Source: a virus (Duplodnaviria > Caudoviricetes). Taken from it: a DNA stretch of 57,088 bases. Below are positions 1 to 35,400 of the stretch, piece after piece. Numbering within the stretch: the stretch's first letter is position 1; each line of letters opens with the position of its first letter. The DNA is taken from positions 1 through 57,088 of the IMG/VR virus record IMGVR_UViG_3300044619_000511. One strand, given 5' to 3'. The position numbers were made by a program, and so were the translations under genes. The notes under the pieces are model-generated. The model saw only the letters and a program-made list of their open reading frames with translations. It was not told where the DNA came from and ran no database searches.

Positions 1-73
1 ATTCTTTTTTGTCGACATCAAATACCTTTGTCTTGATACCTTCTACGTGTAGTCCTATTTTCTCTATCCTCAT
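1..73 (-). CDS. N-terminus of an ORF running off the window (MRIEKIGLHVEGIKTKVFDVDKKE...)
   Basis: ATG at 73 overlaps the TGA of the upstream 22-aa ORF (ATGA); frame open to position 1. Confidence 0.55.
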   Translation of the reverse strand, partial: MRIEKIGLHVEGIKTKVFDVDKKE

Positions 74-138
74 AAACTTAGTAAAGTAAGAATGGTTACG
101 ATTAATAATACGATTGGTAGGGTGAAGCCCTTTTTCAT
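70..138 (-). CDS. 22-aa hydrophobic peptide MKKGFTLPIVLLIVTILTLLSL (prepilin-leader-like)
   Basis: Hand-translated; ATGA-coupled to both neighbours. Confidence 0.55.
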   Translation of the reverse strand: MKKGFTLPIVLLIVTILTLLSL

Positions 139-335
139 TCAATCTTTTTTGAGATGAAGATTCCGTTGGGTGTACGCTCTACGATTAACCCATTCTTTTC
201 CATCTCTGCCAGTTGCTCATCCAGTGGCATGATCGGGCCGTCAGTTTTAGAGAACCCTACGTTGTCGGGGATCTTACCACTGGCGGTCTTCTTTACTTTG
301 ATAGTTGACTTCTTGTTGAATGCGTTGTCGTTCAT
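135..335 (-). CDS. hypothetical protein
   Basis: 66 aa; preceded by ACAAAACCCC-ATG start motif. Confidence 0.7.
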   Translation of the reverse strand: MNDNAFNKKSTIKVKKTASGKIPDNVGFSKTDGPIMPLDEQLAEMEKNGLIVERTPNGIFISKKIE

Positions 336-580
336 GGGGTTTTGTTTTTGTGTAAATTAATAAGATTTTGTTTCAGCTCATCAAGGTAGATAATAATGTT
401 ATCCACATCGTGCTTATTGACTTCATCTCGTAACTGGCTTTCAGTTTCCAGTCCCTTGTCGTACCACCTAGCATCATCGCTCATCCGGTAGTAGAAGTCG
501 TGGTCAATAACTCTTTTCAGTAACTCTTTCATTTGCAAATAGTTGTTTAAATCCTCTATAAACTCCTCGCTTGTAGGCAT
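332..580 (-). CDS. hypothetical protein
   Basis: 82-aa ORF coupled to the downstream gene. Confidence 0.65.
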   Translation of the reverse strand: MPTSEEFIEDLNNYLQMKELLKRVIDHDFYYRMSDDARWYDKGLETESQLRDEVNKHDVDNIIIYLDELKQNLINLHKNKTP

Positions 581-797
581 CAGTCTCGTGGTTGAATGCT
601 CCCGCCAGTATCAGAGAGGTGACTGATACATACTTCGTTTCAATGTAGTGGAGGAGATTGGAGAATGTCTTACCATCTCTCAGCCTATCCAGTAGTTCTT
701 CGGGGGACGTAACTGGGACATCATCGAACTCATTGATTCGCTTTGCGTTGATATGCGCATCAGCGATTGCCTTGATTTCGGGGGTGATACGTTTCAT
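504..797 (-). CDS. hypothetical protein
   Basis: 97-aa ORF in the co-oriented early cluster. Confidence 0.65.
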   Translation of the reverse strand: MKRITPEIKAIADAHINAKRINEFDDVPVTSPEELLDRLRDGKTFSNLLHYIETKYVSVTSLILAGAFNHETDAYKRGVYRGFKQLFANERVTEKSY

Positions 798-800
798 AGA

Positions 801-965
801 TTATTGTTTGGTTACTAATCCTAACTGGACGGCGGTATCGGCATCGGCTTCGCTACCAAATTCAATGGTGGCTGGATACTCTCCTTCGGGGGAGGTGATT
901 TCAAAGTCGAGGTCTTCATCCATTAGATACATAATGTCAGATCGGGAGTGTGCTAGGTACTTCAT
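801..965 (-). CDS. small acidic protein (54 aa, MKYLAHSRSD...GLVTKQ)
   Basis: Hand-translated; fills the gap between neighbours exactly. Confidence 0.65.
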   Translation of the reverse strand: MKYLAHSRSDIMYLMDEDLDFEITSPEGEYPATIEFGSEADADTAVQLGLVTKQ

Positions 966-969
966 ATGT

Positions 970-1143
970 TTATAATTTTTGGTAACGTTTCCATCCTACT
1001 TGCTCCTCATCCTCACTGGCGAGTATCCTATACTTATCGCGTAGTTCGGAACGTAGCTTTCGGTCTTTTGTTTTGTGATACTCATCCCACACCTTGTCAA
1101 TCTCTGACTGGGGGGTTAGTTGCTGATAGATTTTCGATTTCAT
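970..1143 (-). CDS. small hypothetical protein (57 aa, MKSKIYQQ...KRYQKL)
   Basis: Hand-translated; stop 4 nt before the next ATG. Confidence 0.6.
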   Translation of the reverse strand: MKSKIYQQLTPQSEIDKVWDEYHKTKDRKLRSELRDKYRILASEDEEQVGWKRYQKL

Positions 1144-1188
1144 TTGCTAGTTTTATAATGTCATCGATTGCTTCTTGTATCTCTTTCA

Positions 1189-1455
1189 TTACCATTGATT
1201 TTCGGTGAAGAATTTAATTGCATTTTGCAGACTGCCAGTTGTCCCTTCCTTTACCTCAGTGCGACTGGGGATGCGGTTGCCGTAGTAGTCTCGGTGTGAC
1301 TGCTTGGGTAGGAAACACGCCCCCGACCTTAGTAACTCCATGGCCGTCCTTCCGACTGCCCCCTCCATCTTCCATGCAGTGCCGGATTCAATTAGTGACT
1401 GGATTTGGTCATAGCCTTGCTCTCGTTGGTGCTTGCGGATAGTTTGAATGTGCAT
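1189..1455 (-). CDS. hypothetical phage early protein
   Basis: 88 aa; start directly follows structured element 1 and the AACCAAACCC motif. Confidence 0.8.
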   Translation of the reverse strand: MHIQTIRKHQREQGYDQIQSLIESGTAWKMEGAVGRTAMELLRSGACFLPKQSHRDYYGNRIPSRTEVKEGTTGSLQNAIKFFTENQW

Positions 1456-1473
1456 ACATTAGGGTTTGGTTAG

Positions 1474-1519
1474 GAACTGGCATCCGTATCGATCGGATTA
1501 CGATTCTCTCTGCCAGTTC
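1474..1519 (-). ncRNA. tRNA-like minihelix element, copy 1
   Basis: GAACUGGC-[AGAGAGAAUCGUA]-AUCCG AUCGAUA CGGAU-GCCAGUUC: 8-bp closing stem plus 5-bp stem/7-nt loop. Confidence 0.8.
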
Positions 1520-1524
1520 GGGAG

Positions 1525-1752
1525 CTATTGAATAATCTTTAGTACTCGATGACCATAAAATGCATAGCCCTCAAATTCAATAAAATTACTAACTGGATCG
1601 GAACAAGAGGTTACCTTCAGCAACTGGCCCCTCTTAGGCCCATTCTCTAAATCTTCAACATCAATTGCTACAACTAAATCGCCTTCAAATAATTGTGTTC
1701 CGTCAATGTCATTGCAGTATTGGTTAACTGGAGTTTCTGATAGATTAGACAT
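1525..1752 (-). CDS. hypothetical protein
   Basis: 75 aa, bracketed by elements 1 and 2. Confidence 0.8.
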   Translation of the reverse strand: MSNLSETPVNQYCNDIDGTQLFEGDLVVAIDVEDLENGPKRGQLLKVTSCSDPVSNFIEFEGYAFYGHRVLKIIQ

Positions 1753-1771
1753 AGTATTTGGGTTTGGTTAG

Positions 1772-1812
1772 GAACTGGTTGCCATCGAAGGCCACGGCAT
1801 ATCCGCCAGTTC
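1772..1812 (-). ncRNA. tRNA-like element, copy 2 (degenerate)
   Basis: GAACUGG-CGGAUAUGCCG-UG-GCC UUCGAU GGC-AA-CCAGUUC. Confidence 0.65.
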
Positions 1813-1822
1813 GGGGGTGTTC

Positions 1823-2053
1823 TTAGAATGCGAGGCGCTTTAACTCATTGAGCATTGATTCTCCGCCATCGAATACTCCGTTGTAGGTTATCCAATATTG
1901 GAGTAATTCAAAGTCACTATACTGATCAAGAAGGTCGTAGCTTTCCTTATAGGTCTGATGTAGTTGCGCCGAGTCTATCTCGGCCATGTAATCCAACAAA
2001 TATTTTCTAAAGTCTTGGCACTTTTGGTTTGGTGGGGCGATGCATTTAAACAT
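1823..2053 (-). CDS. hypothetical protein (start MFKCIAPP)
   Basis: Start moved to ATG 2053, downstream of element 3. Confidence 0.75.
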   Translation of the reverse strand: MFKCIAPPNQKCQDFRKYLLDYMAEIDSAQLHQTYKESYDLLDQYSDFELLQYWITYNGVFDGGESMLNELKRLAF

Positions 2054-2072
2054 AAAATAGGGTTTTGATGAG

Positions 2073-2115
2073 GAACTGGGAGCGGAGTCGAACCGCTCTG
2101 ATACCATGCCAGTTC
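2073..2115 (-). ncRNA. tRNA-like element, copy 3
   Basis: GAACUGG-CAUGGUAUCA-GAGCGG UUCGACU CCGCUC-CCAGUUC; canonical T-loop GUUCGACUC. Confidence 0.85.
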
Positions 2116-2122
2116 GGGGGGA

Positions 2123-2218
2123 TTATAATGCCCGATTAGAGGGTAAAATAACGTATCCGTTTTTGATAGAAAAGAACTCACGGATTGAATTGCGGAAGGA
2201 CTTGATTGCTTTTGACAT
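2123..2218 (-). CDS. 31-aa peptide MSKAIKSFRNSIREFFSIKNGYVILPSNRAL
   Basis: Exactly fills the space between elements 4 and 3; CAAAACCCC start motif. Confidence 0.65.
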   Translation of the reverse strand: MSKAIKSFRNSIREFFSIKNGYVILPSNRAL

Positions 2219-2237
2219 TGTTAGGGGTTTTGATGAG

Positions 2238-2283
2238 GAACTGCGGTCGGTTTCGCTCCGACTTCGGTCTTACCTCGCAGTTC
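2238..2283 (-). ncRNA. tRNA-like element, copy 4
   Basis: GAACUGCG-[AGGUAAGACCGAA]-GUCGG AGCGAAA CCGAC-CGCAGUUC; compensatory change in closing stem. Confidence 0.85.
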
Positions 2284-2290
2284 GGGGGGG

Positions 2291-2782
2291 TTAAAATTCC
2301 CAGTCATAATGATACTCTGCTTGTCCAAAGAGAATGTTTACCTTAGGATACCTCCTTTTAGCCTTAGTGAATCCCTTGACCAGTTTAAGGTCGTTGTTAT
2401 CATCGTAGAGGCCTATTTCACTGCAGCGAATCCATAGGTCAACACTATTTTTAAACTGCTCATAGAACGATTCCTCAAAAACGATATTCTCAATCACCTC
2501 TCTCCATGCGCCATTGCGATAGATGAGAGTGCGTTTGTATCCATTGGGATTAGGAGTCAGTTCCCAATCTTGGTGTCCCATACCTTCCGAATTGGGCTTA
2601 GCCGTGTGATTCATTTCGCGGATGACACACTGCTTACCATCAGCGGATACCTCCAGTACTTCAGCGGGATGGCGGTCTGAATAGGAGAGGAGAGTAGCAC
2701 CTTTGCCTACCTCGGGGGTAGTCGAATTGTTGCCCATAAGGTAGTTGGTGAAGCTACCTTCGAGTCTTCTAGTTTGTCTCAT
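2291..2782 (-). CDS. hypothetical phage protein (start MRQTRRLEG)
   Basis: 163 aa; start set downstream of element 5. Confidence 0.8.
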   Translation of the reverse strand: MRQTRRLEGSFTNYLMGNNSTTPEVGKGATLLSYSDRHPAEVLEVSADGKQCVIREMNHTAKPNSEGMGHQDWELTPNPNGYKRTLIYRNGAWREVIENIVFEESFYEQFKNSVDLWIRCSEIGLYDDNNDLKLVKGFTKAKRRYPKVNILFGQAEYHYDWEF

Positions 2783-2801
2783 TGTAAGGGGTTTGATTCG
2801 T

Positions 2802-2845
2802 AACTGGGGGTGGTATCGCTCCACCTTCGCACATTGCTCCCAGTT
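2802..2845 (-). ncRNA. tRNA-like element, copy 5
   Basis: AACUGGG-[AGCAAUGUGCGAA]-GGUGG AGCGAUA CCACC-CCCAGUU: 7+5 bp, tRNA acceptor/T-arm geometry. Confidence 0.85.
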
Positions 2846-2853
2846 CGGGGGAC

Positions 2854-2937
2854 TTATCTACAAATTTGGTCTTGCAGTAAACCTACTACATACCCTACCA
2901 CTAGTAGGACAAGTAATAACTGAATAACTGGTTTCAT
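2854..2937 (-). CDS. 27-aa single-TM peptide MKPVIQLLLVLLVVGYVVGLLQDQICR
   Basis: Hand-translated; ATGA-coupled to the upstream gene, ends just before element 5. Confidence 0.6.
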   Translation of the reverse strand: MKPVIQLLLVLLVVGYVVGLLQDQICR

Positions 2938-3128
2938 AGAGGAGATAATTTAGCTTGTTTACAAAGACGCTCCCATTTAAGGTCACGTAGGATTTGCTTA
3001 GAGTCCCCGCCTAGTTCCACGAGGATTTGTTTCACGCGTGTGTGGGTGGAAATAACGGCTTCCGTTCTGCGGATTAACTGGCCATTGGCCTTAGCCGAGA
3101 ATAGGGGTGTTTTAATTCTCTTGCGCAT
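2934..3128 (-). CDS. hypothetical basic protein
   Basis: 64-aa ORF in operon. Confidence 0.65.
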   Translation of the reverse strand: MRKRIKTPLFSAKANGQLIRRTEAVISTHTRVKQILVELGGDSKQILRDLKWERLCKQAKLSPL

Positions 3129-3246
3129 TGCTTGGAGATTGAAGGGTTATTGAATCTGATTGAAAGGATACTACTAGCCATCCGTCGTATAGATACTGGG
3201 CAGCTAGTTGTTGTCCTTTTAGGGTGGTGAGGTTTATGCTTATCAT
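3112..3246 (-). CDS. hypothetical protein (start MISINLTT, 44 aa)
   Basis: Start downstream of element 6. Confidence 0.6.
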   Translation of the reverse strand: MISINLTTLKGQQLAAQYLYDGWLVVSFQSDSITLQSPSNAQEN

Positions 3247-3264
3247 AGCTGAGGTTTTGTTAAG

Positions 3265-3307
3265 TAACTGGGAGGGGAGTCGAACCCCTCCTAAGACCAT
3301 CCAGTTA
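3265..3307 (-). ncRNA. tRNA-like element, copy 6
   Basis: UAACUGG-AUGGUCUUAG-GAGGGG UUCGACU CCCCUC-CCAGUUA; begins in the UAA stop of the PAPS-reductase-like gene. Confidence 0.85.
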
Positions 3308-4066
3308 TCCGCAGACGAACTCTGCGACCTTGAACTGCGCATCACCCTCAACGATATCCTTCAGCCAGTTTTTCTCCTTCCCACTCATAAGAAGGGTAAA
3401 GCCCAGTCTCTCCTCAGTTTCAACGTATCGCTTGTATAACTGGGGGTTATGCTTCGCGGCTACCTTGATATCGCTCTTGTTACTCATAATGCAAAACACA
3501 CAAGATAGACGGCTCATGCCGAGGTCATAGGCGTAGTGTCTCTTCTGACCTACGGACTCAATTTCCGCCCATACTTCCTTCACGCTCCAGTCAAAGATGG
3601 GTAGCCAGTCATACCACTCACGACCTGCTTTGCTATTGCGCTCATTGAGACGGAATGGGATTTGCTTTGCTCGTGCGGATGATTCTTCTGCACGAATCCC
3701 CATACAATTCACAATGAGAGTTTTACCTCGCTCCTTGCACCAGTTACGGATAAATTTCTCGATTGGCTGACGCTTGAGGTCGCTTGTACACTGGCGATAA
3801 CTGGGGGATGGGAACATCCCACGATGCTCAACCATCTCAAAGAAGGTTTTACCGGCACGAACTAAATGCGCCTCTATGCCCAATGAATTCTCTTGTACGT
3901 GACTCCAACACCCCTCCCAGTCAACTTCGGGAAGGTCTGCGTGAACGATTACCAATTGGTCGTGAGGAACTACCTTGCTAAGAAATATCTTCATCGCTTG
4001 GCTATCCTTTCCTCCGGAATCATTGATAAAAAAGATTGCACCTTTGTCGATTAATTCTTGAATCAT
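3305..4066 (-). CDS. PAPS reductase family (PP-loop) protein
   Basis: SGGKDS PP-loop, CTSDLK, GIRAEESxxR, RLSCVFC; start MIQELIDK at 4066. Confidence 0.9.
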   Translation of the reverse strand: MIQELIDKGAIFFINDSGGKDSQAMKIFLSKVVPHDQLVIVHADLPEVDWEGCWSHVQENSLGIEAHLVRAGKTFFEMVEHRGMFPSPSYRQCTSDLKRQPIEKFIRNWCKERGKTLIVNCMGIRAEESSARAKQIPFRLNERNSKAGREWYDWLPIFDWSVKEVWAEIESVGQKRHYAYDLGMSRLSCVFCIMSNKSDIKVAAKHNPQLYKRYVETEERLGFTLLMSGKEKNWLKDIVEGDAQFKVAEFVCG

Positions 4067-4079
4067 AACTGGGGTTTTG

Positions 4080-4128
4080 GGTTTCGGCCTGCTTGGCCTC
4101 ATCAGTACGGATAGCGTATCCGTAGACC
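4080..4128 (-). ncRNA. type III hammerhead ribozyme
   Basis: GGUC|UACGGAUA CGC UAUCCGUA CUGAUGA GGCC AAGCA GGCC GAAA CC: full catalytic core, stem I 8 bp, stem II 4 bp, stem III 3 bp; predicted cut between 4125 and 4124. Confidence 0.85.
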
Positions 4129-4129
4129 T

Positions 4130-4490
4130 TGTCATTTCGGGGGTAGTCAATGGCGATAAATCGGCCAACAACATCTGCCCCAGTAGGTGAGTCCTTTCGG
4201 TTCTCTCACCCCAACACCCTAACTACAACTTGTGTAGGTTTGGCGCGACCTTGTGTGAACACTGGGAGTCGGTTCGTTACCGCCAGTGTGCCTGTGTTTA
4301 TGTGCCGAGGAAGGCATCCTCGAGTCTCTCTCGCTCAACACGATTTTATCGAGACCATCGCTTTGCATTTATCGTGGTTTGGTGTCCGTCCGTCCATCGT
4401 ACTCACCTAGTCTGGTGGATGGGTGGGGGTGCATTGCCCTAACACGTTGTAGCGAACATTTGAAAGAACTGCGGACTCATTGTCGAATCC
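4130..4490 (-). ncRNA. putative large structured leader/ncRNA
   Basis: No credible ORF; many hairpins and long-range complementary segments between promoter and hammerhead. Confidence 0.55.
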
Positions 4491-4491
4491 G
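4459..4491 (-). promoter_or_regulatory. boxB-like hairpin followed by boxA-like AGTTCTTTCAAA
   Basis: CGGATTC GACAAT GAGTCCG then GTTCTTTCAA just after the predicted start site; resembles rrn-type boxA. Confidence 0.5.
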
Positions 4492-4494
4492 ATG

Positions 4495-4527
4495 CAAACA
4501 TAGGGTGGCAGGGTAACTACTTCCAAA
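4495..4527 (-). promoter_or_regulatory. Bacteroidota sigma70-type promoter of early operon
   Basis: TTTG (-33), 21-nt spacer, TATGTTTG (-7, TAnnTTTG); A/T-rich upstream tract. Confidence 0.8.
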
Positions 4528-4651
4528 TTTTTTTACAACTTTTTTTAAAAATACGTATTCTTACTTAGAATTTGGATTGAGAATCAAGCAATTAAGCAAA
4601 AAAATAATTTAGGGGTAAGTAAGGTCGGGAGGGTAAAATGGGGGTATCGGC

Positions 4652-4727
4652 TACTAAAAGCATTAGTAATCAATACTAAAGAAATTAGCTGGTTGTCAAT
4701 GAAAGCAAATTGCTAAAGAGATTAGCA
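4652..4727. promoter_or_regulatory. three operator-like palindromes TRCTAA-N5-TTAGYW
   Basis: 4652-4668, 4674-4690, 4711-4727. Confidence 0.6.
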
Positions 4728-4750
4728 AAGGCGGGGGGTTCGGGGGAATA

Positions 4751-5083
4751 CTAGAGCCGTTTATTAAGTAGATAGCTCCGTATATAGGATAAGTACTCTC
4801 TCCCTAGAGGAGTAATAGAATACCGCTTGTGTGTCTCCCTAATAGCAAGGCCAAGAAGACAAAGAGAATTCAAGTAGTTCCAAGAGGAACGATTGTCTGC
4901 CCGCTTAACATGGGGGCGATGCAAAAAAACAAAATCAGCTAAGGCCGTTTGACTGGTAGTGCCTAGCCTACGAAGGCCGTATAAAAATCGTAACTGGGTA
5001 TAGTTTAACTCAGCAATTCCAGTACGCTGAGATGCACGATAAATGGCAGTATCTACACACAAAAAGAATTTCTCAATCTTCAC
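4751..5083 (-). CDS. winged-helix (MarR-like) DNA-binding protein
   Basis: LNYTQLRFL...SQTALA...YSITPLGREYL wHTH pattern. Confidence 0.7.
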   Translation of the reverse strand: MKIEKFFLCVDTAIYRASQRTGIAELNYTQLRFLYGLRRLGTTSQTALADFVFLHRPHVKRADNRSSWNYLNSLCLLGLAIRETHKRYSITPLGREYLSYIRSYLLNKRL

Positions 5084-5518
5084 GGATGAAAGGTTTTTTG
5101 TAAAGGGAGGAGGGGGGCTATTGTATCTTTAAACACACACGCATAATCGCCACATTCCCAATATGTTGCAAGGTTTTTATCCAGTTCCGTTTCCCTCTTC
5201 ATTCCCTCCCCATTGATTACCCCACTACCTCCTTCACAACCTAACGCAATATGTGTCAGCCAGTTAGGTATTATATGGGGGTTATATGGTATTACCCGTT
5301 CAGCCCTAAAATCGTTTTTGGAACTGCCAAAAATACCCCCACCCAGTTTGCGTTTTGCGATTCGCAAAATTATCAAAAGCCACTTAAAATAATGTATTAC
5401 CCCCACTCTTTTCCCACACACATCTGATCTATAAACCCTTGGCATAAACTCTCGATTTTTTGTAGTCCAAATTTAGGCTTTATTTGTTGGTTATAGACGG
5501 GTGTGAAAAACTTGTATC

Positions 5519-5549
5519 TTGGCGGTTCGGGGTTCTCTTTGTATGTTTG
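5519..5549 (+). promoter_or_regulatory. putative rightward promoter
   Basis: TTG, 20-nt spacer, TATGTTTG (5542-5549). Confidence 0.5.
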
Positions 5550-5803
5550 TCTGGCTACGTTATCCGGGTGCATGGAGATAACATCAAGGGGGCCCCGTAG
5601 CTGTGCGAAGATTGAAACTTCGGCGACGATTTAATAGGACAGGTCAACACGCGTAAACCGGCGGAAGATCCTCCAGCAGGCGATGCCACCAAATAGGATG
5701 GACGGCCTTAAACAACCCTAAGGGGGGAAAGGGGGGTGTGCTCAGAATTTTCTTGGCTCAGATTTAATGCTTTATTATCTCTCGTTTAATTAATTTGCAC
5801 TGT

Positions 5804-5965
5804 ATGGAAATGATGCTTCGTAAGGATGGTTCTTACTCTCGTCGTGGACTCTGGGATAATATCAGGGCCAAGGCTGGTAGTGGTAAGAAGCCAACCAAAG
5901 AAATGTTAGAGCAAGAACGTAAAATAAAAAAAGATGCCTCTAAAAAAAGCAAAAAGAAAAAGTGA
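5804..5965 (+). CDS. small Lys-rich protein (53 aa)
   Basis: Hand-translated MEMMLRKDGSYSRRGLWDNIRAK... Confidence 0.7.
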   Translation: MEMMLRKDGSYSRRGLWDNIRAKAGSGKKPTKEMLEQERKIKKDASKKSKKKK

Positions 5966-6107
5966 GCTCCAGTCAGCCATCTCGGCTAACATCCGTGAGC
6001 TTATGGCGGATAACAAGAAGAAGGGGAAGGAGAAGGGAGCTGGTGGTAAAGCCAGATCCAAGAAGCAGATCCTTGCAATTGCTATATCAGCCGCTAAAGG
6101 TAAATGA
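5934..6107 (+). CDS. small basic phage protein (57 aa, MPLKKA...QILAIAISAAKGK)
   Basis: Hand-translated; ATGA-coupled to HNH gene. Confidence 0.75.
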   Translation: MPLKKAKRKSELQSAISANIRELMADNKKKGKEKGAGGKARSKKQILAIAISAAKGK

Positions 6108-6373
6108 GGAAGCACACTAAGGTATACTTAGACTTCTTTGGTTATGGGATGGATAGCTGGATGCCCTGTGAGGTATGCGGATCTACTGCTGTGGATGTGC
6201 ACCATATCGAGGCTCGGGGTATGGGTGGCTCTAAGACAAAGGATGAGATCGACAACCTAATGGGTCTTTGTCGGTCATGCCATATTGAGTATGGCGATAA
6301 AAGAAAGTACATGGATATGCTTCGTGAGGCGCACATGCGTTTCATGGATAAGTATAGTAATTCACATTTGTAG
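6104..6373 (+). CDS. HNH endonuclease
   Basis: CEVC...DVHH...NLMGLCRSCH. Confidence 0.9.
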   Translation: MRKHTKVYLDFFGYGMDSWMPCEVCGSTAVDVHHIEARGMGGSKTKDEIDNLMGLCRSCHIEYGDKRKYMDMLREAHMRFMDKYSNSHL

Positions 6374-6420
6374 ATAAGTAATATGATTAAGATATCCACA
6401 TCTTATAGTAATTTAGTCAT

Positions 6421-6990
6421 ATGCAGCCGATCTACAAGATATTCGTTAAGATTGATAAGCGGTTCCAAGACGAGATAGAGACCGAGTCTGGTCTAAAGTT
6501 ATACAAGGACACTTCATTTAAACAAGAGGAGAACTCAACAATTGTTGGGCATGTGGTTGCTGTACCGGATAAGTATGACCACTCTATGGGGTCTGAGGAT
6601 TTTAAGGCTAACGTCAAGGCTGGAGATAAATTATATTTTCATTTCTTGGTAGCCATGGATGAGGAGAATAGAATAGAGGTAGATGGGGAGGAGTACTGGA
6701 TGGTAGATTATTTTAACGCGATCGCGCTGGTGCGCGATGGTAAGATCATACCTGTCGGTGACTATATCTTACTAGATCCAATCAAAGAAAAGGTTGATAC
6801 CAGCCTTATCGTCCCAGACACGGTGGATAAGGAGGGTACCCGCGGATTGGTGGTAGCCAGTAACGATCCATCTATACCTGAAGGGTCTACTGTTGAATAT
6901 GAGGAGGTTGGTAAGTTTTGGAATATCATTGAGGGGCGTAGACTGTACTGCATGTTCAACCAAAACATTTTATTTATACACAATGACTAA
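6421..6990 (+). CDS. GroES-like co-chaperonin with two tandem domains
   Basis: TESGL...GHVVAV...VKAGD and PVGDYILL...LIVP...GLVVA GroES-like motifs. Confidence 0.7.
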   Translation: MQPIYKIFVKIDKRFQDEIETESGLKLYKDTSFKQEENSTIVGHVVAVPDKYDHSMGSEDFKANVKAGDKLYFHFLVAMDEENRIEVDGEEYWMVDYFNAIALVRDGKIIPVGDYILLDPIKEKVDTSLIVPDTVDKEGTRGLVVASNDPSIPEGSTVEYEEVGKFWNIIEGRRLYCMFNQNILFIHND

Positions 6991-7318
6991 GCAACAGATG
7001 AAACAGATACGAGAGATTGCCAACCGGTTGCCGGTGGTTTATGAGCAGTGTGCTTCTGGAGGTGAGGTTGTAGAAAATGATGGTAATAATGTATTTATGC
7101 CAAATGTTTATAATCATCCGGTCAATCATGTTCGTAGAATGAGAAAGGCTTACGAGCAGCTTGGGATGGATGGTATTAGAAGCTATTTAGAAAGTATTCA
7201 CCAACTTCAATTAAAGAGAAATGAAACTCTCAAAGAAGACATCGCAAGTGGTAAGTTCTCACCCCAAGGGGATAGTTTACCAACAGATAGTGAGTCTATT
7301 CCTGAAGATAGGAAGTAA
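6983..7318 (+). CDS. hypothetical protein (start MTKQQMK)
   Basis: ATG 6983 overlaps end of previous gene. Confidence 0.7.
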   Translation: MTKQQMKQIREIANRLPVVYEQCASGGEVVENDGNNVFMPNVYNHPVNHVRRMRKAYEQLGMDGIRSYLESIHQLQLKRNETLKEDIASGKFSPQGDSLPTDSESIPEDRK

Positions 7319-20827: not shown

Positions 20828-21922
20828 ATGTCAAAAAAGATGTTGGTCAATCTTGACCTAACCAAAAATCAGATCCTCAACGTAGCGTTGCAGAATCTTG
20901 GCGGTCCACCCGCTTCGCCTGTTGCTGGCCAGATATACTACAATACCGCAGATGGTAACGTATATTACTGGAATGGTACGGCTTGGGTAAGCATCTCAGG
21001 AGATATCACTGCTGTAGTTGCTGGCGCAGGTCTTACTGGTGGTGGTACTAGCGGATCTGTAACTTTAGATCTTAACCCAGATAATACTACAATTGAAGTT
21101 GACTCTGATATTGTAAGAATTAAAGATCTTGGGGTTAGTACTGGTAAATTAGCAAATGATGCTGTTACGACTATCAAGGTGACAGATTCTAATATTACAT
21201 TCGCTAAAATACAGAACATTGCTACAATGACCGTTATGGGTCGTGTGGCTTCTGGCACTGGTGTTGCTAGTGAGATTTCAATTCTCGACAGCAATACAAT
21301 GTCAGGCGCGTCTTCTTTAAACTTAGCAACAGCTGGTTCAATTAAGGCATATGTTGATAACACTGTGGCTGGCCTAGGTAATCTTGAAGGTGGGTTCGCC
21401 GCAGGTTCTTCTGTTAACTTTCCTACTGGTGCTGGTGGTACTAAGAAAGGAGACTATTGGTATGTTACCAGTGCGGGTACAGTTCAAGGAGTTGCATTAA
21501 ATATTGGCGATGTATTGATCGCTAATATCGATAACGCTTCTCCTACTTCATCTTCTGACTGGACATTCCTTGAGTCTAATCGTGACCAAGCTACTGAAAC
21601 AGTTCTTGGCGTTGTAAGACTTGCGACTCAAGTAGAAGCTGATGCAGGAATAAATGATACTGCAGTTATTACCCCATTAAAATTAAAAACAGTTCTTGAT
21701 AACCGTGTTGGCGGGTATGCTGCTAATATTGGTAACGGAGCTGCTACATCTTACGCTGTTACTCACTCGCTGAATACAATTGATGTTATTGTTATGATTA
21801 AGGACAACGCAACTCTTGAAGAAGTTTTTGCTGACGTCGTTATCACAGATGCAAATACCGTGACGGTAAGTTTTGCAATTGCTCCACTTAGTAATGCATA
21901 CAGAGTAATAATTAAGAAATAA
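20828..21922 (+). CDS. fibre-like virion protein
   Basis: GQIYYNT, AGAGLTGGG, ATETVLGVVRLAT, H.LNT.DV motifs. Confidence 0.75.
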   Translation: MSKKMLVNLDLTKNQILNVALQNLGGPPASPVAGQIYYNTADGNVYYWNGTAWVSISGDITAVVAGAGLTGGGTSGSVTLDLNPDNTTIEVDSDIVRIKDLGVSTGKLANDAVTTIKVTDSNITFAKIQNIATMTVMGRVASGTGVASEISILDSNTMSGASSLNLATAGSIKAYVDNTVAGLGNLEGGFAAGSSVNFPTGAGGTKKGDYWYVTSAGTVQGVALNIGDVLIANIDNASPTSSSDWTFLESNRDQATETVLGVVRLATQVEADAGINDTAVITPLKLKTVLDNRVGGYAANIGNGAATSYAVTHSLNTIDVIVMIKDNATLEEVFADVVITDANTVTVSFAIAPLSNAYRVIIKK

Positions 21923-24900
21923 TGAGATTTCTAACAAACATATTAGCAAAGGCTGGTTTAATAGTAGACGGTACTACGCAATTAAATACAATTGCTAACG
22001 CTACTGTTGACACAGATAAGTTTCTTGTAAGTGATGGCGGTGTCGTTAAATATAGAACAGCCCCTCAGTTGGTTGCTGATCTTGGCCCGCTCCCATCATC
22101 TGTATTAAGACATCAGGTAAAACTTGGTGAGGCAATTAATAAAGGACAAGCAGTATACGTATCTAGTGCAGACGGTACTAATATGATTGTATCTAAGGCG
22201 TCAAATGTTACAGACTTAACATCATCAAAGACGCTTGGACTTATAGAGACAAGTGGTGTAACTAATGATCAGGTTAATGTAGTCACAGAAGGATTGCTGG
22301 CTGGTCTTGATACATCTACAGCCACTGCTGGTGACCCAGTATGGTTGGGGACAAATGGTAACCTAATATTCGGATTAGTTAATAAACCATCTGCGCCAGC
22401 TCACCTAGTATTTATAGGGGTTGTAACAAGAGTTCAATCTGTAAATGGTGAGATCTTTGTTAAGGTGCAGAACGGGTTTGAGATGGAAGAACTTCATAAC
22501 GTTGCCATCTCTTCTATAGCAAATAAAAACTTGTTGATGTATGAAGCAGCGACAAGTTTATGGAAGAATAAAACTCTTGGTAATGTTATTGGCGGTACAT
22601 CTACACAGTATGTAAAAGGTGACGGTACTCTTGGATCATTCCCTGATATTGGTGGTGGAGGTGGATTAGTATACTATCTAAATGGAAGTGTTTCTGCTAG
22701 TGTTGGCGGATATTTTCAAATGAGTAAGACGCCAGTTATTGGAGCTGGAACTGACTTTAGTAAAACAGGAGATGGATTAATATGCCAGTTTTTAACTGAC
22801 GTGAATGACCCATCTTTGCTTAGCGTGCCATCTGGTGCTTGGAGATTCGGTTTATATGCTTCAATGGGTAGCGCAGGTAACTCATCAAAATTCTATGTTG
22901 AGGTATTTAAGTATGATGGTACTACATTTACATTAATAGGTAGTTCTTCTGGCACCCCAGAGTCAGTATCTAATGGTACTGCAATAGAGTACTATACGAC
23001 TACCGTAGCGATGTCTACTACTGCTTTAACTGTTACAGATAGAATAGCGGTAAGGGTATACGCCACAGATAACAACACTAGAACAATGACTATTCATACT
23101 GAGAATAGCCACTTGTGTGATATTTCAACTACATTCCCTTCTGGTATAGCATCTATCAATGGATTAATTACTCCTTCACAATATTTATCTACAACAACTA
23201 CTGGAACTGATTTCACAATCTCTTCCTCTAGCAATACACATTATTTTAATCTTCCTGTTGCTAGTGCTACCATAACTGGTAAGCTTAGCTCCACTGACTG
23301 GTCTACCTTTAACAATAAGCAAAATGCTTTAGGGTATACCCCTGTTAACCAGACTAGATCATTAACAATTAATGGAGTCACATATGATCTATCTTCTGAT
23401 AGAACTTGGAGCGTAGGTACGGTTACTTCAGTTGGGCTATCTGTTCCAACTGGATTTTCAGTATCTAATACTCCAGTAACAGGAAGTGGAACAATAGGAC
23501 TTTCTTTTACAGCTGGTTATTCTTTACCAACCACTGCGTCTCAATCGAATTGGGACGTAGCATATACAAATAGAATTACATCCCTGACTACTACAGGTAC
23601 AAGTGGCGCTGCTACATTAGTTAGTAACGTACTTAATATACCTCAGTATCAAGCTCAGGGTAGTTATATAACTTCATTAACAGGTGAGGCTACGGCATCA
23701 GGTCCGGGGTCTGCATCTGTAACACTATCTACATCCGCAGTCACAGGTAAGGTGCTTACCGGTTTAAACGTAACCGGTGGCACTGTACTTGCTACTGATT
23801 CTATTTTAACTGCATTCGGTAAGTTGCAGAATCAAGTAAATGGTTTAGCTGGAGGTGTAACTTATCAGGGTGCATGGGATGCTTCTACTAACTCTCCATC
23901 TCTTACAAGTTCTGTTGGAACTAAGGGATATTATTATGTGGTATCAGTTGCTGGTTCTACAAACCTAAACGGTATCACAGACTGGAAGCTTGGAGATTGG
24001 GCGATCTTTAATGGTACTGCATGGGAGAAGGTTGACAACACAGACGCGGTAGTTTCTGTAAACGGGTTTACTGGCGCTGTTAGTTTAACAACTACAAATA
24101 TCGCTGAAGGTACTAACCTTTATTATACAGATACTAGAGCAAGAGCTGCTATTAGTTTAACTACTACTGGTACATCTGGCGCTGCTACCTATTCTGCAGG
24201 AGTATTAAATATTCCTCAGTATAGTTTGGCCGGGCTCGGGGGAGTTCCAAGTAATAGAACACTAACAATCAACGGAACATCATACGATTTATCTGCAGAC
24301 AGGACATGGACGATTACAAATATATCCGGTAACTCAGCTACCACTTCAGCCGTTTCAGGTACTACCAACTATATCCCCAAGTTTACAAGTTCAAGTGCAA
24401 TAGGAAATAGTGCAGTTTATGATGCTTCTGGAAGTATTGGTATTGGAACTTCAAGTCCAGTTGCAAATACTCCTTTGACTTTACAGGCAGCAAGTGGTTA
24501 TACAGATATTTTGTGGTTAAAATCAGCGGGAACAAACATTGATGCAAGAATTAATATGGCTCCAACTGGAACTGGTCTTGCTCAATTAAATAATACAAAC
24601 GGAACTGGGATTGCTTTTCAAATATCAGGTAGTGAGCAAATGCGTCTTACCTCTACTGGCTTGGGTATAGGTACTTCCCCAACACAAAAATTACACGTTT
24701 TTGGTACAAGTGGTGCAACAACTGCCATCATAGAAGGTGCAACAAATGCAAGCGCATACGGTAAATTAGAGTTAAGAGGTAGACCAGCTGGTGCAGGCCA
24801 ATCTACAGGTTGGATTGTAGCTGCATCAACAGAAGGAGGTCAAGCTGCAACAAACGTAGCAGGTATTGATTTCACAATGGCTGGGGCTGCTGGCAATGCG

Positions 24901-32450: not shown

Positions 32451-35400
32451 ATGCCTGTAGTAAAAAAAGCATTCACGGTCGGAATTAATAATGACGACGC
32501 CTCATACTTAATGGACCCTAAGGAATACCTTGGGGCTCTTAATATTAGGTTTGTTACGTCAGAGAATGGTGAGGTTGGGCAGATTACTAACATCGAAGGT
32601 AACCAACTAAAGAACCAGACCATTGATCGTGTAGGTGCTACAACTACATTTACGCTACCACAATACGGATGGAATAAGACTATTGGTGCATATGAGGATT
32701 ATGCAAAGAGAAGACTTTTTTGGTTTAACTACAATTCTACAGGTTGGCATGGCATATATTGTTACGATGCAGATACTGATAAGATCTACACTCTGCTAGA
32801 GAATACAAATAACGATAATCTCATATACTTCTATCAGGACAGGTTTATACATAGTATCGCCATGATTGGTGATTTAATGTATTGGATAGAGAATGGATTA
32901 CAGAAAAAGATAAATGTTGAGGCAGCGATTAAAGCTAATCACCCATCTTACTCTACAAGCGTAGAAAGATATGAATTGTTTAACCCGCTTATTACTACGC
33001 CCGGATCTGGTTATACTAATGGTGTTTATGTAGATGTACCAGTTAGCAATACTACTCCCCCGAACCCAGCCCATATTGGTATTGGTGCAAGGGCTACTGT
33101 TACAGTTGCTGGTGGCGTTGTAACAAAAGTGGTTATGACCTACTTTGGTAGGTACTATAGAAATGGTGATACGTTCACCTTTAACTCAGCTGTAATTGGC
33201 GGTACCGGTTCTGGTGTCGTGGTAACTATTAATGGGTTATTAGCAAAGAGTGTATTAACTGTGATTAGGTGGAAGCCGGTTTTCCCAGCTACAGCTACTG
33301 CACAGGTTGAACTTGGTTTAATAAATAATTTTATCGATAATAATGCGTATCAATTTACGTATCGTTATGTATATAGAGACGGCGAGAAGTCTGTATTTGC
33401 TCCACTGTCTAATATGATACCTTATGACTTAGATGGCGGTAGTATAAACTGTATAGACGTTAAGCATCCTAACCGACTTATTGAGCAGGATGTGACTTCG
33501 GTGGAGTTTGCTGTTAAGTTCATGACTGGCGGGAAGATGTTCATAATTAAGACATTTAACAAGTCAGATATTGCAACACATAACAGTGGGTCATTTCTTA
33601 CTTACAGATTCTATAATGACACAGCAGGTGCAGCTGTTGCTCCAGCAGAATACTCAAAGCCTTACGACTATGTGCCTGTTAGTTCAGAGACACTAGAGAT
33701 TGCTAAGAATAGATTATTCTTGGGTAATAACGTATATGGCTATAACGACCCAAACACTACTTCTTTATCAGCAAAAGCTATACCTATTGTATACAATAAA
33801 GTAACTGGGGTATGGATGGAGCTTGAGTATCTAAAGCTTGGTGTTGTATTAAAAGGATATTATGTTGGTATTGCATACGAGGGTGGGTATAAATATTTCT
33901 ATCCAGATACGCAACCAATCCCTCCATCATTCCCTTCTACACTTAATTTTATAAATGATCTAAACTTATTCTCTCCATCTGTAGACTTCATTACTCCTGA
34001 GCAAATAGCTACATTTGAGGGTGGTACGCTACTTACGTTTAAGTATACTGGGTATTATGCTGATGTTACCAACTTACCATTACTTCCACCAGTAACTGCA
34101 GCGGGTGCAGGTGGGATTAACTTTAAGAGTAATACATACTATAGACTTGGTATTGTGTTTTATGATAAGTACGGAAGAGGCGGTGGGGTGATTGGCAATG
34201 AACCTGCAAAGGCTATTACTGCTGATACTGCATATTCTAACTTTACTTACAATAGGGATATTATATGGAGCCTATCACAGACCAATGCGCTGAATGAGAT
34301 ACCAGATTGGGCTTGGTATTACAGTATTGTAAGAACAAAATGCTTGACTGTTTCTTCTTTTATGCAGTGGCGTGACGATTTCAAATACGTTATTAAGGAC
34401 CCAGTTACCGGCAACCTAACATATCAGGATACTTATAGCGTTGGTGCATATGGTATAGGTATACTGACAAAGAATTTAGCTGCATTGGGAATGGGATATA
34501 CATATGATGTTGATGAAGAGGCAGTTGTTAGAGTGTATAAAAGTGACGGTACTAAATTTACCTTAAATGTTAAAGACCAGTCTGGAGATTATATAATTAT
34601 TGAACCAGCTGATATTGGGTCTTCTGCTGTAGTCCCTGATCCTCTATATGAATTAAGTATACCATACGTTCTTAGTGAACAGGAGTTCTACTATGAGGTT
34701 GGTAATATGTACGAGGTAGCTAATCCTACTAGCAACTTTAGAAGTTATGCAAAAACATACGGATTTTTAAGTGGTGATGTATATATAAAACTAATTACAC
34801 CGGGTACATATTTTACTGAGAATATGAGTCTCAATAAAAGGTACTGGCAGAATTGGTATACAGGTATAGGTATGGCTAACGCTATTACCTCAGCCACACA
34901 ATCGCCAAGACCAGTTAGTATTTCCTACTCTGGTACATACCTACCCGGCACTAAGCTAAACGGTTTAAGTTCATTTGAGGCTTTAGATTTTGTGGATTTA
35001 CCTACAGAACTGCATTCTATACAGAAGTTGATTATTACTTCTAAGATTCAATTTGAAGGTAATGTGATGCTTGCGATTGGTGAGCAGGGCACAGCAAATA
35101 TATATGTAGGCGAGACTCAATTATTTGATAATACTGGCTCATCCCTCATAGCCAAGAGCTCGGGGGTAATAGGCAATATTAATATATTAAGAGGTGCCTT
35201 TGGAACCATAAATCCAGAGAGCGCCTTTAGATGGTCTGGAGAGGTTATCTATTTTGATGCCAATCGTGGAGCGTGGGTAAAGTATGATATGAATGGATTG
35301 TCTGCTATCTCAGATAATAAGATGCGGAAGTTCTTTAAAAAGTCTGGCCTTGCAATCCTAGAGAATAAGCAAGAGCCATCGGTATATAATGCAATTAATA

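Follow-up and report, generated by a model that had tools for sequence, protein, structure and literature searches.

tRNA-like minihelices and hammerhead ribozymes in equivalent intergenic slots of a phage operon: candidate signals for cutting a polycistronic RNA

What is the function of the short folded RNA elements that fill successive gaps between the genes of a phage operon? The question was raised by IMG/VR virus record IMGVR_UViG_3300044619_000511 (Duplodnaviria; Caudoviricetes), which was analysed as a whole and is called the window here (57,088 bp, estimated completeness 86%). The genes in its positions 1-6100 lie on the minus strand, and six elements between 3307 and 1474 are read on the minus strand too. 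A reading made from the sequence alone (the sequence-only reading) had described them as minihelices resembling the acceptor and T arms of a transfer RNA (tRNA) and had proposed that host tRNA-processing nucleases cut a polycistronic RNA at these places into single-gene mRNAs. Such cutting is considered here to be the best explanation of the minihelices, and a probable one, because self-cleaving RNAs and tRNA mimics were found to be interchangeable in these gaps.

A repeated minihelix between the genes

The six minihelices were found where the sequence-only reading had placed them, its mRNA strand being the minus strand of the window. Their general plan is a closing stem of 7-8 base pairs (bp), (G)AACUGNN/NNCAGUU(C), stacked without a gap on an inner stem of 5-6 bp with a loop of 7 nucleotides (nt); a linker of 10-13 nt on the 5' side connects the two stems. 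Element e1 (3265-3307, type A) has the closing stem UAACUGG/CCAGUUA, the 10-nt linker AUGGUCUUAG, the inner stem GAGGGG/CCCCUC and the loop UUCGACU, and is followed by an ATG at 3246. Element e4 (2073-2115; ATG at 2052) is likewise of type A, with the closing stem GAACUGG/CCAGUUC, the linker CAUGGUAUCA, the inner stem GAGCGG/CCGCUC and the same loop. Type B is represented by e2 (2802-2846; ATG at 2782), in which the closing stem AACUGGG/CCCAGUU, flanked by the unpaired bases G2846 and A2801, is combined with the linker A-[GCA AUG UGC]-GAA, the inner stem GGUGG/CCACC and the loop AGCGAUA, and by e3 (2238-2283; ATG at 2218), which has an 8-bp closing stem GAACUGCG/CGCAGUUC, the linker A-[GGU AAG ACC]-GAA, the inner stem GUCGG/CCGAC and the loop AGCGAAA. 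Element e6 (1474-1519; ATG at 1455) is type B-like: its closing stem is GAACUGGC/GCCAGUUC, its linker has 13 nt, and its inner stem AUCCG/CGGAU carries the loop AUCGAUA. Element e5 (1772-1812; ATG at 1752) had been called degenerate and is so: the closing stem GAACUGG/CCAGUUC is intact, and the inner stem UGCCGU/AUGGCA is degenerate, with an 8-nt loop containing UUCG. This degenerate variant was also found in three relatives (G003, G008, G011).

Several details of the sequence-only reading were borne out and others had to be narrowed. All the loops it had listed were found (UUCGACU twice, AGCGAUA, AGCGAAA and AUCGAUA). The mini-stem of 2-3 bp that it had assigned to the linker is present in e2 and e3 and weakly in e6, but the 10-nt linkers of e1 and e4 are unpaired and contain UGG. 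A stop codon lies 5-10 nt before e2-e6 as expected, whereas in e1 the first bases are overlapped by the TAA of the PAPS-reductase gene (3307-3305). The next ATG, expected about 19-20 nt downstream, was found 18-20 nt past the closing stem in all six copies. According to the list of open reading frames (ORFs), there are seven non-overlapping intergenic gaps from 4132 down to 1455, and all are filled: six by minihelices, and the seventh, which the sequence-only reading had missed, by a hammerhead at 4132-4076. Genes further downstream overlap or abut, and no elements were found there.

Folding of single sequences gave limited evidence. RNAfold returned the proposed two-stem fold for e1-e4; in e6 the minimum free energy structure kept the closing stem and paired the interior differently, and in e5 the inner stem was degenerate. 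Fold energies were moderately unusual (z from -0.85 to -3.39 over the six copies, e1 and e5 being unremarkable), and the antisense strand folded about equally well. Because the z scores are moderate and the antisense strand folds similarly, folding energy alone is weak evidence, and the case for the elements rests on comparative data. The arm pattern GAACTG-N25-45-CAGTT had 11 matches in the window against 0.60 expected, a number reached in 0 of 100 shuffles; five of the elements account for nine of these matches, the other two are unrelated, and e1, which starts with TAACTG, is unmatched. A structure-only descriptor written in Python was dropped, since it gave 15 matches in the window and 3-14 in shuffled sequence.

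A covariance model (R1) was built from five window copies, with e5 left out of building. The five scored 50.5 (e1), 55.5 (e2), 61.9 (e3), 54.6 (e4) and 61.6 bits (e6), e5 scored 19.0 bits (E 0.0016), and the antisense strand 9.5-12.8 bits. Nothing else in the window was convincing, the next best score being 17.1 bits inside a RecE-like ORF. Matches to R1 were found in all four close relatives (16 matches) and in 14 of 20 relatives chosen by terminase (49 rows), down to about 47% terminase identity. A broader model, R2, matched all 11 further viral contigs that had been picked by a strict pattern (47 rows). The family thus comprises 30 uncultured viral records including the window, with up to 8 matches per record; all related records are metagenomic, and near-duplicates are present among the 30 (G005/G006, G013/G016, G026/G028, G030/G031 and G034/G035). 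Five terminase relatives without R1 matches had none with R2 either, and two of these five (G007, G012) carry a hammerhead. No match was found in the three cultured relatives MW202828.1, MT497071.1 and PP540027.1. PAPS reductase proved a poor guide to the elements, which were present in just the 4 closest of 39 PAPS-reductase loci, since the protein family extends far beyond the element; terminase relatives were a better guide. The strict DNA pattern gave no confirmed copy over 185,579 prokaryote genomes. Its lone match, on a 9-kb contig of a Gemmatimonadaceae metagenome-assembled genome, lay inside a long ORF, was unconfirmed by the model and was attributed to chance. A loose arm pattern run over viral contigs gave 118 single, unrelated-looking matches, the chance level for 15 specified bases, and was likewise rejected.

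The covariation check proposed with the sequence-only reading gave a very strong result. When 61 matches, 53 of them distinct, were aligned by the model, 96.7% of the cells were paired and 12 of 13 pairs showed compensatory changes; 127 cells had changes on both sides compared with 27 in shuffles, and 0 of 500 shuffles were as good. Sliding the pairing along the same alignment left 26-49% paired. Since a model-fitted alignment leans towards the model, pairing was recounted on ungapped MAFFT alignments. Type A (21 sequences) was 98.2% paired, with compensatory changes in 11 of 13 pairs and a covariation score of 0.714 vs 0.152. Type B (14 sequences) was 97.3% paired with the mini-stem included, and the 3-bp mini-stem itself was 92.9% paired, two of its three pairs being compensatory. 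The AACUG arm itself covaries in distant relatives (GAGCUAGU/ACUAGCUC, CGAUUG/CAAUCG). The shuffle counts are not probabilities, because the sequences are related paralogues and orthologues, and the slid controls, which preserve relatedness, are equally clear. Together the alignments show the minihelix structure to be under selection.

Much of what is conserved resembles a tRNA. Type A, the common form, carries the canonical tRNA T-arm GGUUCGAYUCC, and the loop-closing pair is G-C in 53 of 53 distinct copies, at the place of G53-C61 in tRNA. The loops of the 51 parsed copies were UUCGAUU (18), UUCGACU (11), AGCGAUA (9), AGCGAAA (3) and ten others found once each, so that UUCGAYU accounts for 29 of the 51. 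The stacked helix has 13 bp in 41 of them, 12 bp in nine and 11 bp in one, however it is split between the two stems. The type A linker is a 10-nt RAUGGUYNYA, and UGG was found in the linker of 30 of the 31 copies with a loop starting UUCGA; judged from tRNA structure, this UGG may sit where the G18-G19 of the D-loop, which dock with the T-loop, would originate. The type B linker, A-G-(3-bp stem, 3-nt loop)-GAA with an invariant first G-C pair, can be read as the equivalent of positions 9-10 followed by a mini D-arm and a short variable region. Rfam locally aligns the minihelix arm to the T-arm consensus of transfer-messenger RNA and tRNA. The minihelices are nevertheless not tRNAs, as they have no anticodon arm and only 10-13 nt between the acceptor-like stem and the T-arm. 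They also belong to no known RNA family: in Rfam 15, including the Flavo-1 and skipping-rope motifs suggested for comparison, no family matched them (E <= 10 in 1300-4800, E <= 1 in the whole window and E <= 0.5-1 in 16 related loci).

The position of the elements is as regular as their fold. The slot is defined by its flanks and consists of a stop codon, a C-run, the element, a short CA-rich leader and an ATG. In 17 loci, from which the near-duplicates L293 and L301 were excluded, all 79 matches are in gene sense, and most start 5-12 nt past a stop codon, commonest at 6-7 nt. C was found at each of positions -5 to -1 in 53-58 of 77 distinct copies. The four trailer bases are C (in 72 of the 77), U (in 60), either C or A, and finally A (in 68), a sequence near NCCA but without C74. 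Counted from the first trailer base, the first ATG lies at 14-21 nt in 66 of the 77, with a mode of 19-20 nt (one base less from the stem end), and the leader up to it has 43% A, 32% C and 3.4% G. A UAUUCCCCCGAAC sequence was also observed at about 4735-4750 (-), after the stop codon of a conserved ORF of about 110 amino acids (aa) at 4751-5083, and no minihelix follows it, which shows that the C-run/GAAC flank can occur by itself.

GC-rich stems directly after stop codons could also be transcription terminators or attenuators between the cassettes, and true terminators in one relative start with the same CCCCCGAGC motif. This reading is very improbable. The elements have no U-tract, nearly all copies having a CUCAUCAAAAC-like trailer in which CU(C/A)A is followed by the CA-rich leader; true U-tract terminators look different, and there is no pairing between the 3' arm and the C-run. 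Stopping at six sites would moreover silence the downstream genes.

Hammerhead ribozymes and a tRNA in equivalent slots

The seventh slot of the window holds a type III hammerhead (4076-4132, minus strand), just upstream of the PAPS-reductase gene, whose ATG at 4066 lies 13 nt past the ribozyme. It was the sole significant match in a permissive Rfam scan of 1300-4800 (Hammerhead_3, 31.4 bits, E 0.0005; E 0.008 over the whole window). The full core is present, with CUGAUGA at 4105-4099, GAAA at 4085-4082, G10.1-C11.1, A15.1-U16.1 and a GUC triplet. Stem I (UACGGAUA/UAUCCGUA) has 8 bp, stem II (GGCC/GGCC) 4 bp and stem III (GGU/ACC) 3 bp; the core, an NUH triplet and three helices open at stem III place the element in type III. 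Self-cleavage is predicted between C4125 and U4124, after the GUC. A search of 24 related records with RF00008 found a single copy per record in the window and 11 relatives (12 records, 31.4-45.3 bits), although none reaches the gathering threshold of 48.5 bits (window 31.4; relatives 33.4-45.3). Of two weaker rows, one in G020 (18.3 bits) is a type I copy and one in G017 (11.7 bits, E 0.8) is probably noise. A set of 10 distinct copies shows no change in the core, carries GUC, GUU or GUA as the triplet, and has stems I and II 100% paired; compensatory changes occur in 12 of 17 pairs, and 0 of 500 shuffles were as good. In all seven mapped genomes with a type III copy, the hammerhead lies upstream of every minihelix and 10-20 nt before an ATG.

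The type III hammerhead is preceded by a conserved gene of about 107 aa and then by a conserved, structured, non-coding leader. In the window this leader of about 390 nt (4133-4520, minus strand, start approximate) lies between a promoter-like AAAATTTG/TAAATTTG box at about 4530 and the hammerhead. Its DNA is 72-82% identical in relatives (L128:9030-9475, L312:489-945, L292:6478-6950, L127:5285-5860), and RNAalifold gave several hairpins with compensatory changes, for example at alignment columns 477-491 and 504-528. No Rfam match was found for about 4133-4520. According to the predicted cleavage site, the hammerhead would free the leader as a separate structured RNA. One assembled metatranscriptome contig spans 4255-4466 of the leader, which is no proof of its transcription.

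Type I hammerheads were found in nine relatives by means of a core pattern with a closed stem III (CUGAYGAG ... CGAAAC ... GUC), covarying stems being judged by eye. Seven relatives have one each (G011, G015, G020, G026, G028, G030, G031), and G034 and G035 have three in tandem each. In G034 (locus L373) they lie at 730-769, 1100-1139 and 1585-1622, and bound three cassettes that are followed by seven minihelix matches; further copies are in L365, L363, L359, L367 and L368. The reversed control of the pattern gave 0 matches in 35 records, and five further rows were type III copies matched by accident. Rfam's own model RF00163 (Hammerhead_1) misses the type I copies, giving one weak match, elsewhere, in 35 records. 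The stems covary (GGUUAA/UUAACC vs GUGUAA/UUACAC; GGU/ACC, CAG/CUG and GCU/AGC). The 5' flank is the same as that of the minihelices (stop-UUCCCCCG, UGAUUCCCCCG), and the predicted cleavage leaves UUAACC and about 13 nt, that is, 19-22 nt before the AUG. The G031 element is a hybrid, in which the 5' arm of a minihelix (CCCGAACUGC) stands before the hammerhead.

A real tRNA occupies a slot in G013 (L298:8431-8509, plus strand), followed by CUAAAUUAAAACCCAAUG and lying about 17 nt before an ATG. It is a tRNA(CUA) of the amber suppressor type, labelled tRNA-Pyl by ARAGORN and scoring 51.2 bits with the Rfam tRNA model. A shorter Rfam tRNA match of 60 nt (45.2 bits) was observed in G009 (L295:3284-3343, minus strand), with acceptor, D- and T-arms and no anticodon arm. 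A CCCCCGAGC...GGGGUUUUUU terminator hairpin stands on either side of it, and the 5' arm of these hairpins is similar to the C-run that flanks the minihelices. The match may be an intermediate between a tRNA and a minihelix.

The content of one slot also changes between relatives. The slot before the PAPS-reductase gene, filled by a hammerhead in the window (G000), has a minihelix in three relatives, of type B in G003 and degenerate in G001 and G002; other cassettes likewise change their neighbours and element types. Comparison of the related records thus shows the minihelices to be interchangeable with ribozymes and a tRNA in equivalent slots.

Such changes could mean that the elements work on DNA, as recombination sites or blocks of homology that shuffle cassettes, the RNA fold being secondary; integron attC hairpins and the promoter-stem-loop cassettes of T4-type phages are known comparators. 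Cassette order varies among relatives with elements at the borders, the G031 hybrid joins a minihelix arm to a hammerhead, and among the phage genes are those for a RecE-like exonuclease and a Rad52-like annealing protein. Contigs of a related strain from one DNA run (X5; single contigs, 90% likeness) diverge from the window at 1817, 2064, 2098, 2802 and 2846, at or inside e5, e4 and e2. One X5 contig was seen to continue into a different type A element, and the junctions look like cassette-level mosaics. Yet every copy is in gene sense, the T-loop sequence is meaningful on the RNA strand only (model scores of 50-62 bits in sense and 9-13 in antisense), and ribozymes and a tRNA occupy the same slots. 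Compensatory changes with sequence drift erode the homology that a recombination block needs. The attC core sites R''/R' read RYYYAAC/GTTRRRY; the element arms contain GAAC/GTTC, and GTTCGGG misfits GTTRRRY at the fourth base. Integrons also have an integrase gene nearby; no recombinase, of the tyrosine type or other, was found in the subset of ORFs tested. Shuffling may be a consequence of the conserved flanks and not their function, and a primary role as DNA sites is judged improbable. The shuffled order, the hybrid element and the strain break points at element borders do point to a further effect of the conserved flanks, that of driving modular exchange, which we regard as a consequence and not as the primary function.

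Proposed cutting of the operon RNA and other possible functions

The favoured explanation, cutting of the operon RNA by tRNA-processing nucleases, can be set out as follows. The elements would be transcribed within the polycistronic mRNA of a Bacteroidota-type phage and would act as tRNA mimics that lack the anticodon arm. Each combines an acceptor-like stem and a T-arm, stacked on one another, with a UGG-containing linker in type A and with a mini D-arm of 3 bp in type B. They would recruit the host enzymes that process tRNA ends: RNase P, which would cut at the 5' edge, and/or RNase Z, which would cut a little beyond the 3' edge. Cuts between the cassettes would in this way turn the operon RNA into mRNAs of one gene each, starting 14-21 nt before the AUG with a G-poor, CA-rich leader. 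Hammerheads and the occasional real tRNA would do equivalent cutting in equivalent slots: a type I hammerhead would cut at its 3' edge and leave a 19-22-nt leader, which is the position of an RNase Z cut just past a minihelix, and a type III hammerhead would cut at its 5' edge and stay on the downstream mRNA, which is an RNase P-like position. Because the content of a slot can be a ribozyme, a tRNA or a tRNA mimic, a cut in the RNA between cassettes is the simplest common function. To our knowledge, RNase P and RNase Z are the only machines that recognise the acceptor/T-arm helix with its T-loop elbow and cut its ends, and minihelices serve as RNase P substrates. With its conserved flanks, a gene could move together with its processing signal as a portable cassette, in agreement with the shuffled order of genes in the relatives.

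The processing idea of the sequence-only reading has thus gained support from comparative evidence, namely the selected tRNA-like features and the ribozymes and tRNA in the same slots; from these we infer the cleavage itself, the enzyme that carries it out and the benefit to the phage. Two metatranscriptome runs, which contain a small share of the sequence words sampled from this region, had five short assembled contigs each on 1-7000, none of which bridges or ends informatively at an element. Assembled contigs cannot show transcript ends and DNA carry-over is possible in such runs, which makes them uninformative on cleavage or expression.

A number of observations weigh against cutting by tRNA enzymes. 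The stacked helix of 13 bp is longer than the 12 bp of a standard tRNA, and the model offers no explanation for this; ordinary tRNA has a stacked helix of 12 bp and bacterial tRNA-Sec one of 13 bp. A T-arm in the strict sense (a 5-bp stem closed by G53-C61, a 7-nt UUCRANY loop and stacking on the acceptor strand) was found in type A alone. The type B loops AGCGAWA lack the canonical U in first position and the e5-type copies are degenerate, so that recognition by tRNA enzymes is not assured for every copy. ARAGORN called no tRNA genes in the window and no minihelix in 16 related loci, and RF00005 matched no minihelix at E <= 1 or lower limits in the window and related loci. The model minihelix substrate of RNase P consists of an acceptor stem and a T stem-loop with 12 bp and a 3' RCCA, whereas the trailer here is C-U-(C/A)-A. 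Bacterial RNase P prefers a U before the cleavage site; the base before the element is C in 58 of 77 copies. The C-run also occurs before type I hammerheads and after one element-free stop codon, which the proposal does not account for. C74-C75-A76 blocks RNase Z, so that the absence of C74 would permit cleavage by this enzyme, and the U at trailer position 2 fits its aversion to C74.

If the minihelices were cut out, the excised tRNA mimic of about 45 nt could itself be the product and serve as a sponge or decoy that binds a host factor reading the acceptor/T-arm half of tRNA (a tRNA-targeting defence toxin, or a CCA-adding or modification enzyme); the mRNAs would then be separated incidentally. 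With up to 8 matches per record the dose of mimic would be high, and tRNA-specific features are conserved. The tRNA-like domains of bacterial and phage Y RNAs are modified, serve as RNase P substrates and are CCA-tailed (PMC4201824). Hammerheads, however, replace minihelices in the same slots and yield no tRNA mimic, a decoy has no need of strict stop-to-start placement, and without an anticodon arm the mimic cannot be a decoy for anticodon nucleases. A decoy function is therefore considered unlikely.

Alternatively, the minihelices may remain uncut and act as folded insulators or stabilisers in an intact polycistronic RNA, where they would block 3'-5' or 5'-end-dependent decay or prevent each CA-rich leader, on which ribosomes load, from pairing with the coding sequence upstream. 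Of the alternatives this one is the least unlikely, while still unlikely. It would agree with the fixed AUG spacing (14-21 nt in 66/77), the G-poor leaders (3.4% G), the compact and stable folds, and the type III hammerhead, which likewise leaves a folded RNA 13 nt before the AUG. A generic hairpin would do for this purpose, however, and the T-arm sequence, the invariant G-C, the UGG linker and the constant 13-bp helix are left unexplained. The alternatives found in the slots are self-cleaving ribozymes and a tRNA that needs excision to work.

With cutting at the minihelices as the preferred explanation, a wider proposal can be made tentatively, at slightly below even confidence. A clade of freshwater Bacteroidota-type phages would run a 'punctuated operon', in which promoterless cassettes are separated by interchangeable RNA-cutting modules of three kinds with common flanks, each gene moving with its own processing signal. 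The modules would be hammerheads of types I and III, real tRNAs in occasional slots, and tRNA mimics lacking the anticodon arm, on which host RNase P/Z would act.

The phage, its probable host and known systems

The first cassette of the series is the PAPS-reductase-like gene (3305-4066, minus strand; phrog_424, E 2.4e-38), with the hammerhead upstream and e1 downstream. The minus strand further encodes primase/helicase, the RecE-like exonuclease, the Rad52-like annealing protein and a dNMP kinase (replication and recombination), and the plus strand at 6.4-48.5 kb encodes terminase, portal, head and tail proteins. Pfam and PHROGs gave no phage-encoded RNA-processing enzyme among the 27 ORFs scanned, a part of the full set. 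Three very large ORFs were observed in the virion module: 39611-46966 (+, 2451 aa), 21922-27423 (+, 1833 aa) and 32451-36488 (+, 1345 aa). The 2451-aa protein had no Pfam match at E <= 0.01, and the 1833-aa protein has a tail-fibre-like C-terminus.

The terminase of the window is only about 30% identical to those of cultured phages, and its cultured relatives are almost all phages of Flavobacterium (68 records), Cellulophaga (15), Maribacter and Tenacibaculum. Near-identical DNA was found in 18 lake or freshwater metagenome runs from 15 studies, of which three runs from separate studies may be the source sample. Because the terminase kin are Bacteroidota phages and near-identical DNA occurs in lake and freshwater runs, the host is probably a freshwater member of the Bacteroidota. 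A Cpn10/GroES-like gene (6421-6990, plus strand) lies a few kb upstream of the window terminase, and cpn10 is found directly upstream of the terminase in Flavobacterium phage elemoF and Maribacter phage Panino. The order cpn10-terminase-portal is common to the window and two cultured phages, and the cpn10 gene supports a distant kinship with Bacteroidota podophages.

A literature search outside most subscription journals found no intercistronic tRNA-like minihelices in phages and no alternation of such elements with hammerheads. For a repeated, covarying family of tRNA mimics that punctuates a phage operon and alternates with hammerheads, no earlier description was found in that literature or in Rfam 15. 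If the proposal is true, this would be the first tRNA-punctuation system outside organelles and a natural counterpart of synthetic ribozyme/tRNA insulators, and the first module, the type III hammerhead, would also free a conserved structured leader RNA of about 390 nt. If the minihelices are cut as proposed, bacterial viruses, and not organelles only, would make mRNAs by tRNA-shaped punctuation, and a 13-bp acceptor/T helix with a T-loop and a UGG linker may suffice to recruit tRNA-end enzymes in vivo. The long-debated role of phage hammerheads would gain a concrete and testable setting, the separation of cassettes. The elements would also offer compact natural parts of about 45 nt for multi-gene expression in Bacteroidota, and a model for short conserved RNA signals that promote modular gene shuffling in phage accessory regions.

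The arrangement can be compared with several known systems. In animal mitochondria, genes in polycistronic RNA are separated by tRNAs, which RNase P and RNase Z excise. The phage operon likewise has tRNA-shaped signals between the genes of a polycistronic RNA, but the mitochondrial signals are functional tRNAs and those of the phages are non-decoding mimics, except for the tRNA(CUA) in one relative. In T7 early RNA, host RNase III cuts intergenic hairpins to give defined mRNAs. The purpose would be similar here, the phage using a host endoribonuclease between genes, whereas T7 has long double-stranded hairpins and another enzyme in place of an acceptor/T-arm mimic.

The plant mitochondrial t-elements are non-tRNA, tRNA-like structures that carry the T-arm motif GGTTCRANYCC and adjoin coding regions as the minihelices do; the mRNA ends that RNase P/Z generates fall at the edges of these elements (PMC1920247, Forner et al. 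2007). The t-elements are scattered, cloverleaf-like organellar remnants with mapped ends (PMC1920247). The minihelices, known from sequence alone, are a repeated phage family of about 45 nt with no anticodon arm and with fixed stop/start spacing, and they alternate with hammerheads.

RNase P cleaves phi80 M3 RNA, the precursor of the P1/P7 C4 antisense RNA and polycistronic E. coli mRNAs (PMC11143913). These are also tRNA-like features on phage or operon RNA, and are an RNase P target there; the sites are single and are not reported to form a covarying repeat family or intercistronic punctuation. The YrlA Y RNAs share with the minihelices a tRNA mimicry that is recognised by tRNA enzymes (PMC4201824, Chen et al. 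2014). They are stand-alone, Ro60-bound non-coding RNAs and are not reported to separate protein-coding cassettes. Theta ribozymes, small ribozymes beside phage tRNAs, trim real tRNAs (PMC10879173) and are likewise not reported to have such a role.

The closest likeness for the ribozymes is given by tandem hammerheads that flank genes in prophage polycistronic RNAs (PMC3088659, Perreault et al. 2011). Cleavage of those hammerheads was shown in vitro, and a transcript of haloarchaeal virus HF2 has its 5' end near the cleavage site (PMC3088659). In both cases phage genes are directly preceded by hammerheads, and tandem series of up to three have genes between them. No tRNA mimics are reported from those arrays, whereas in the present operons hammerheads are the minority partner in a mixed series.

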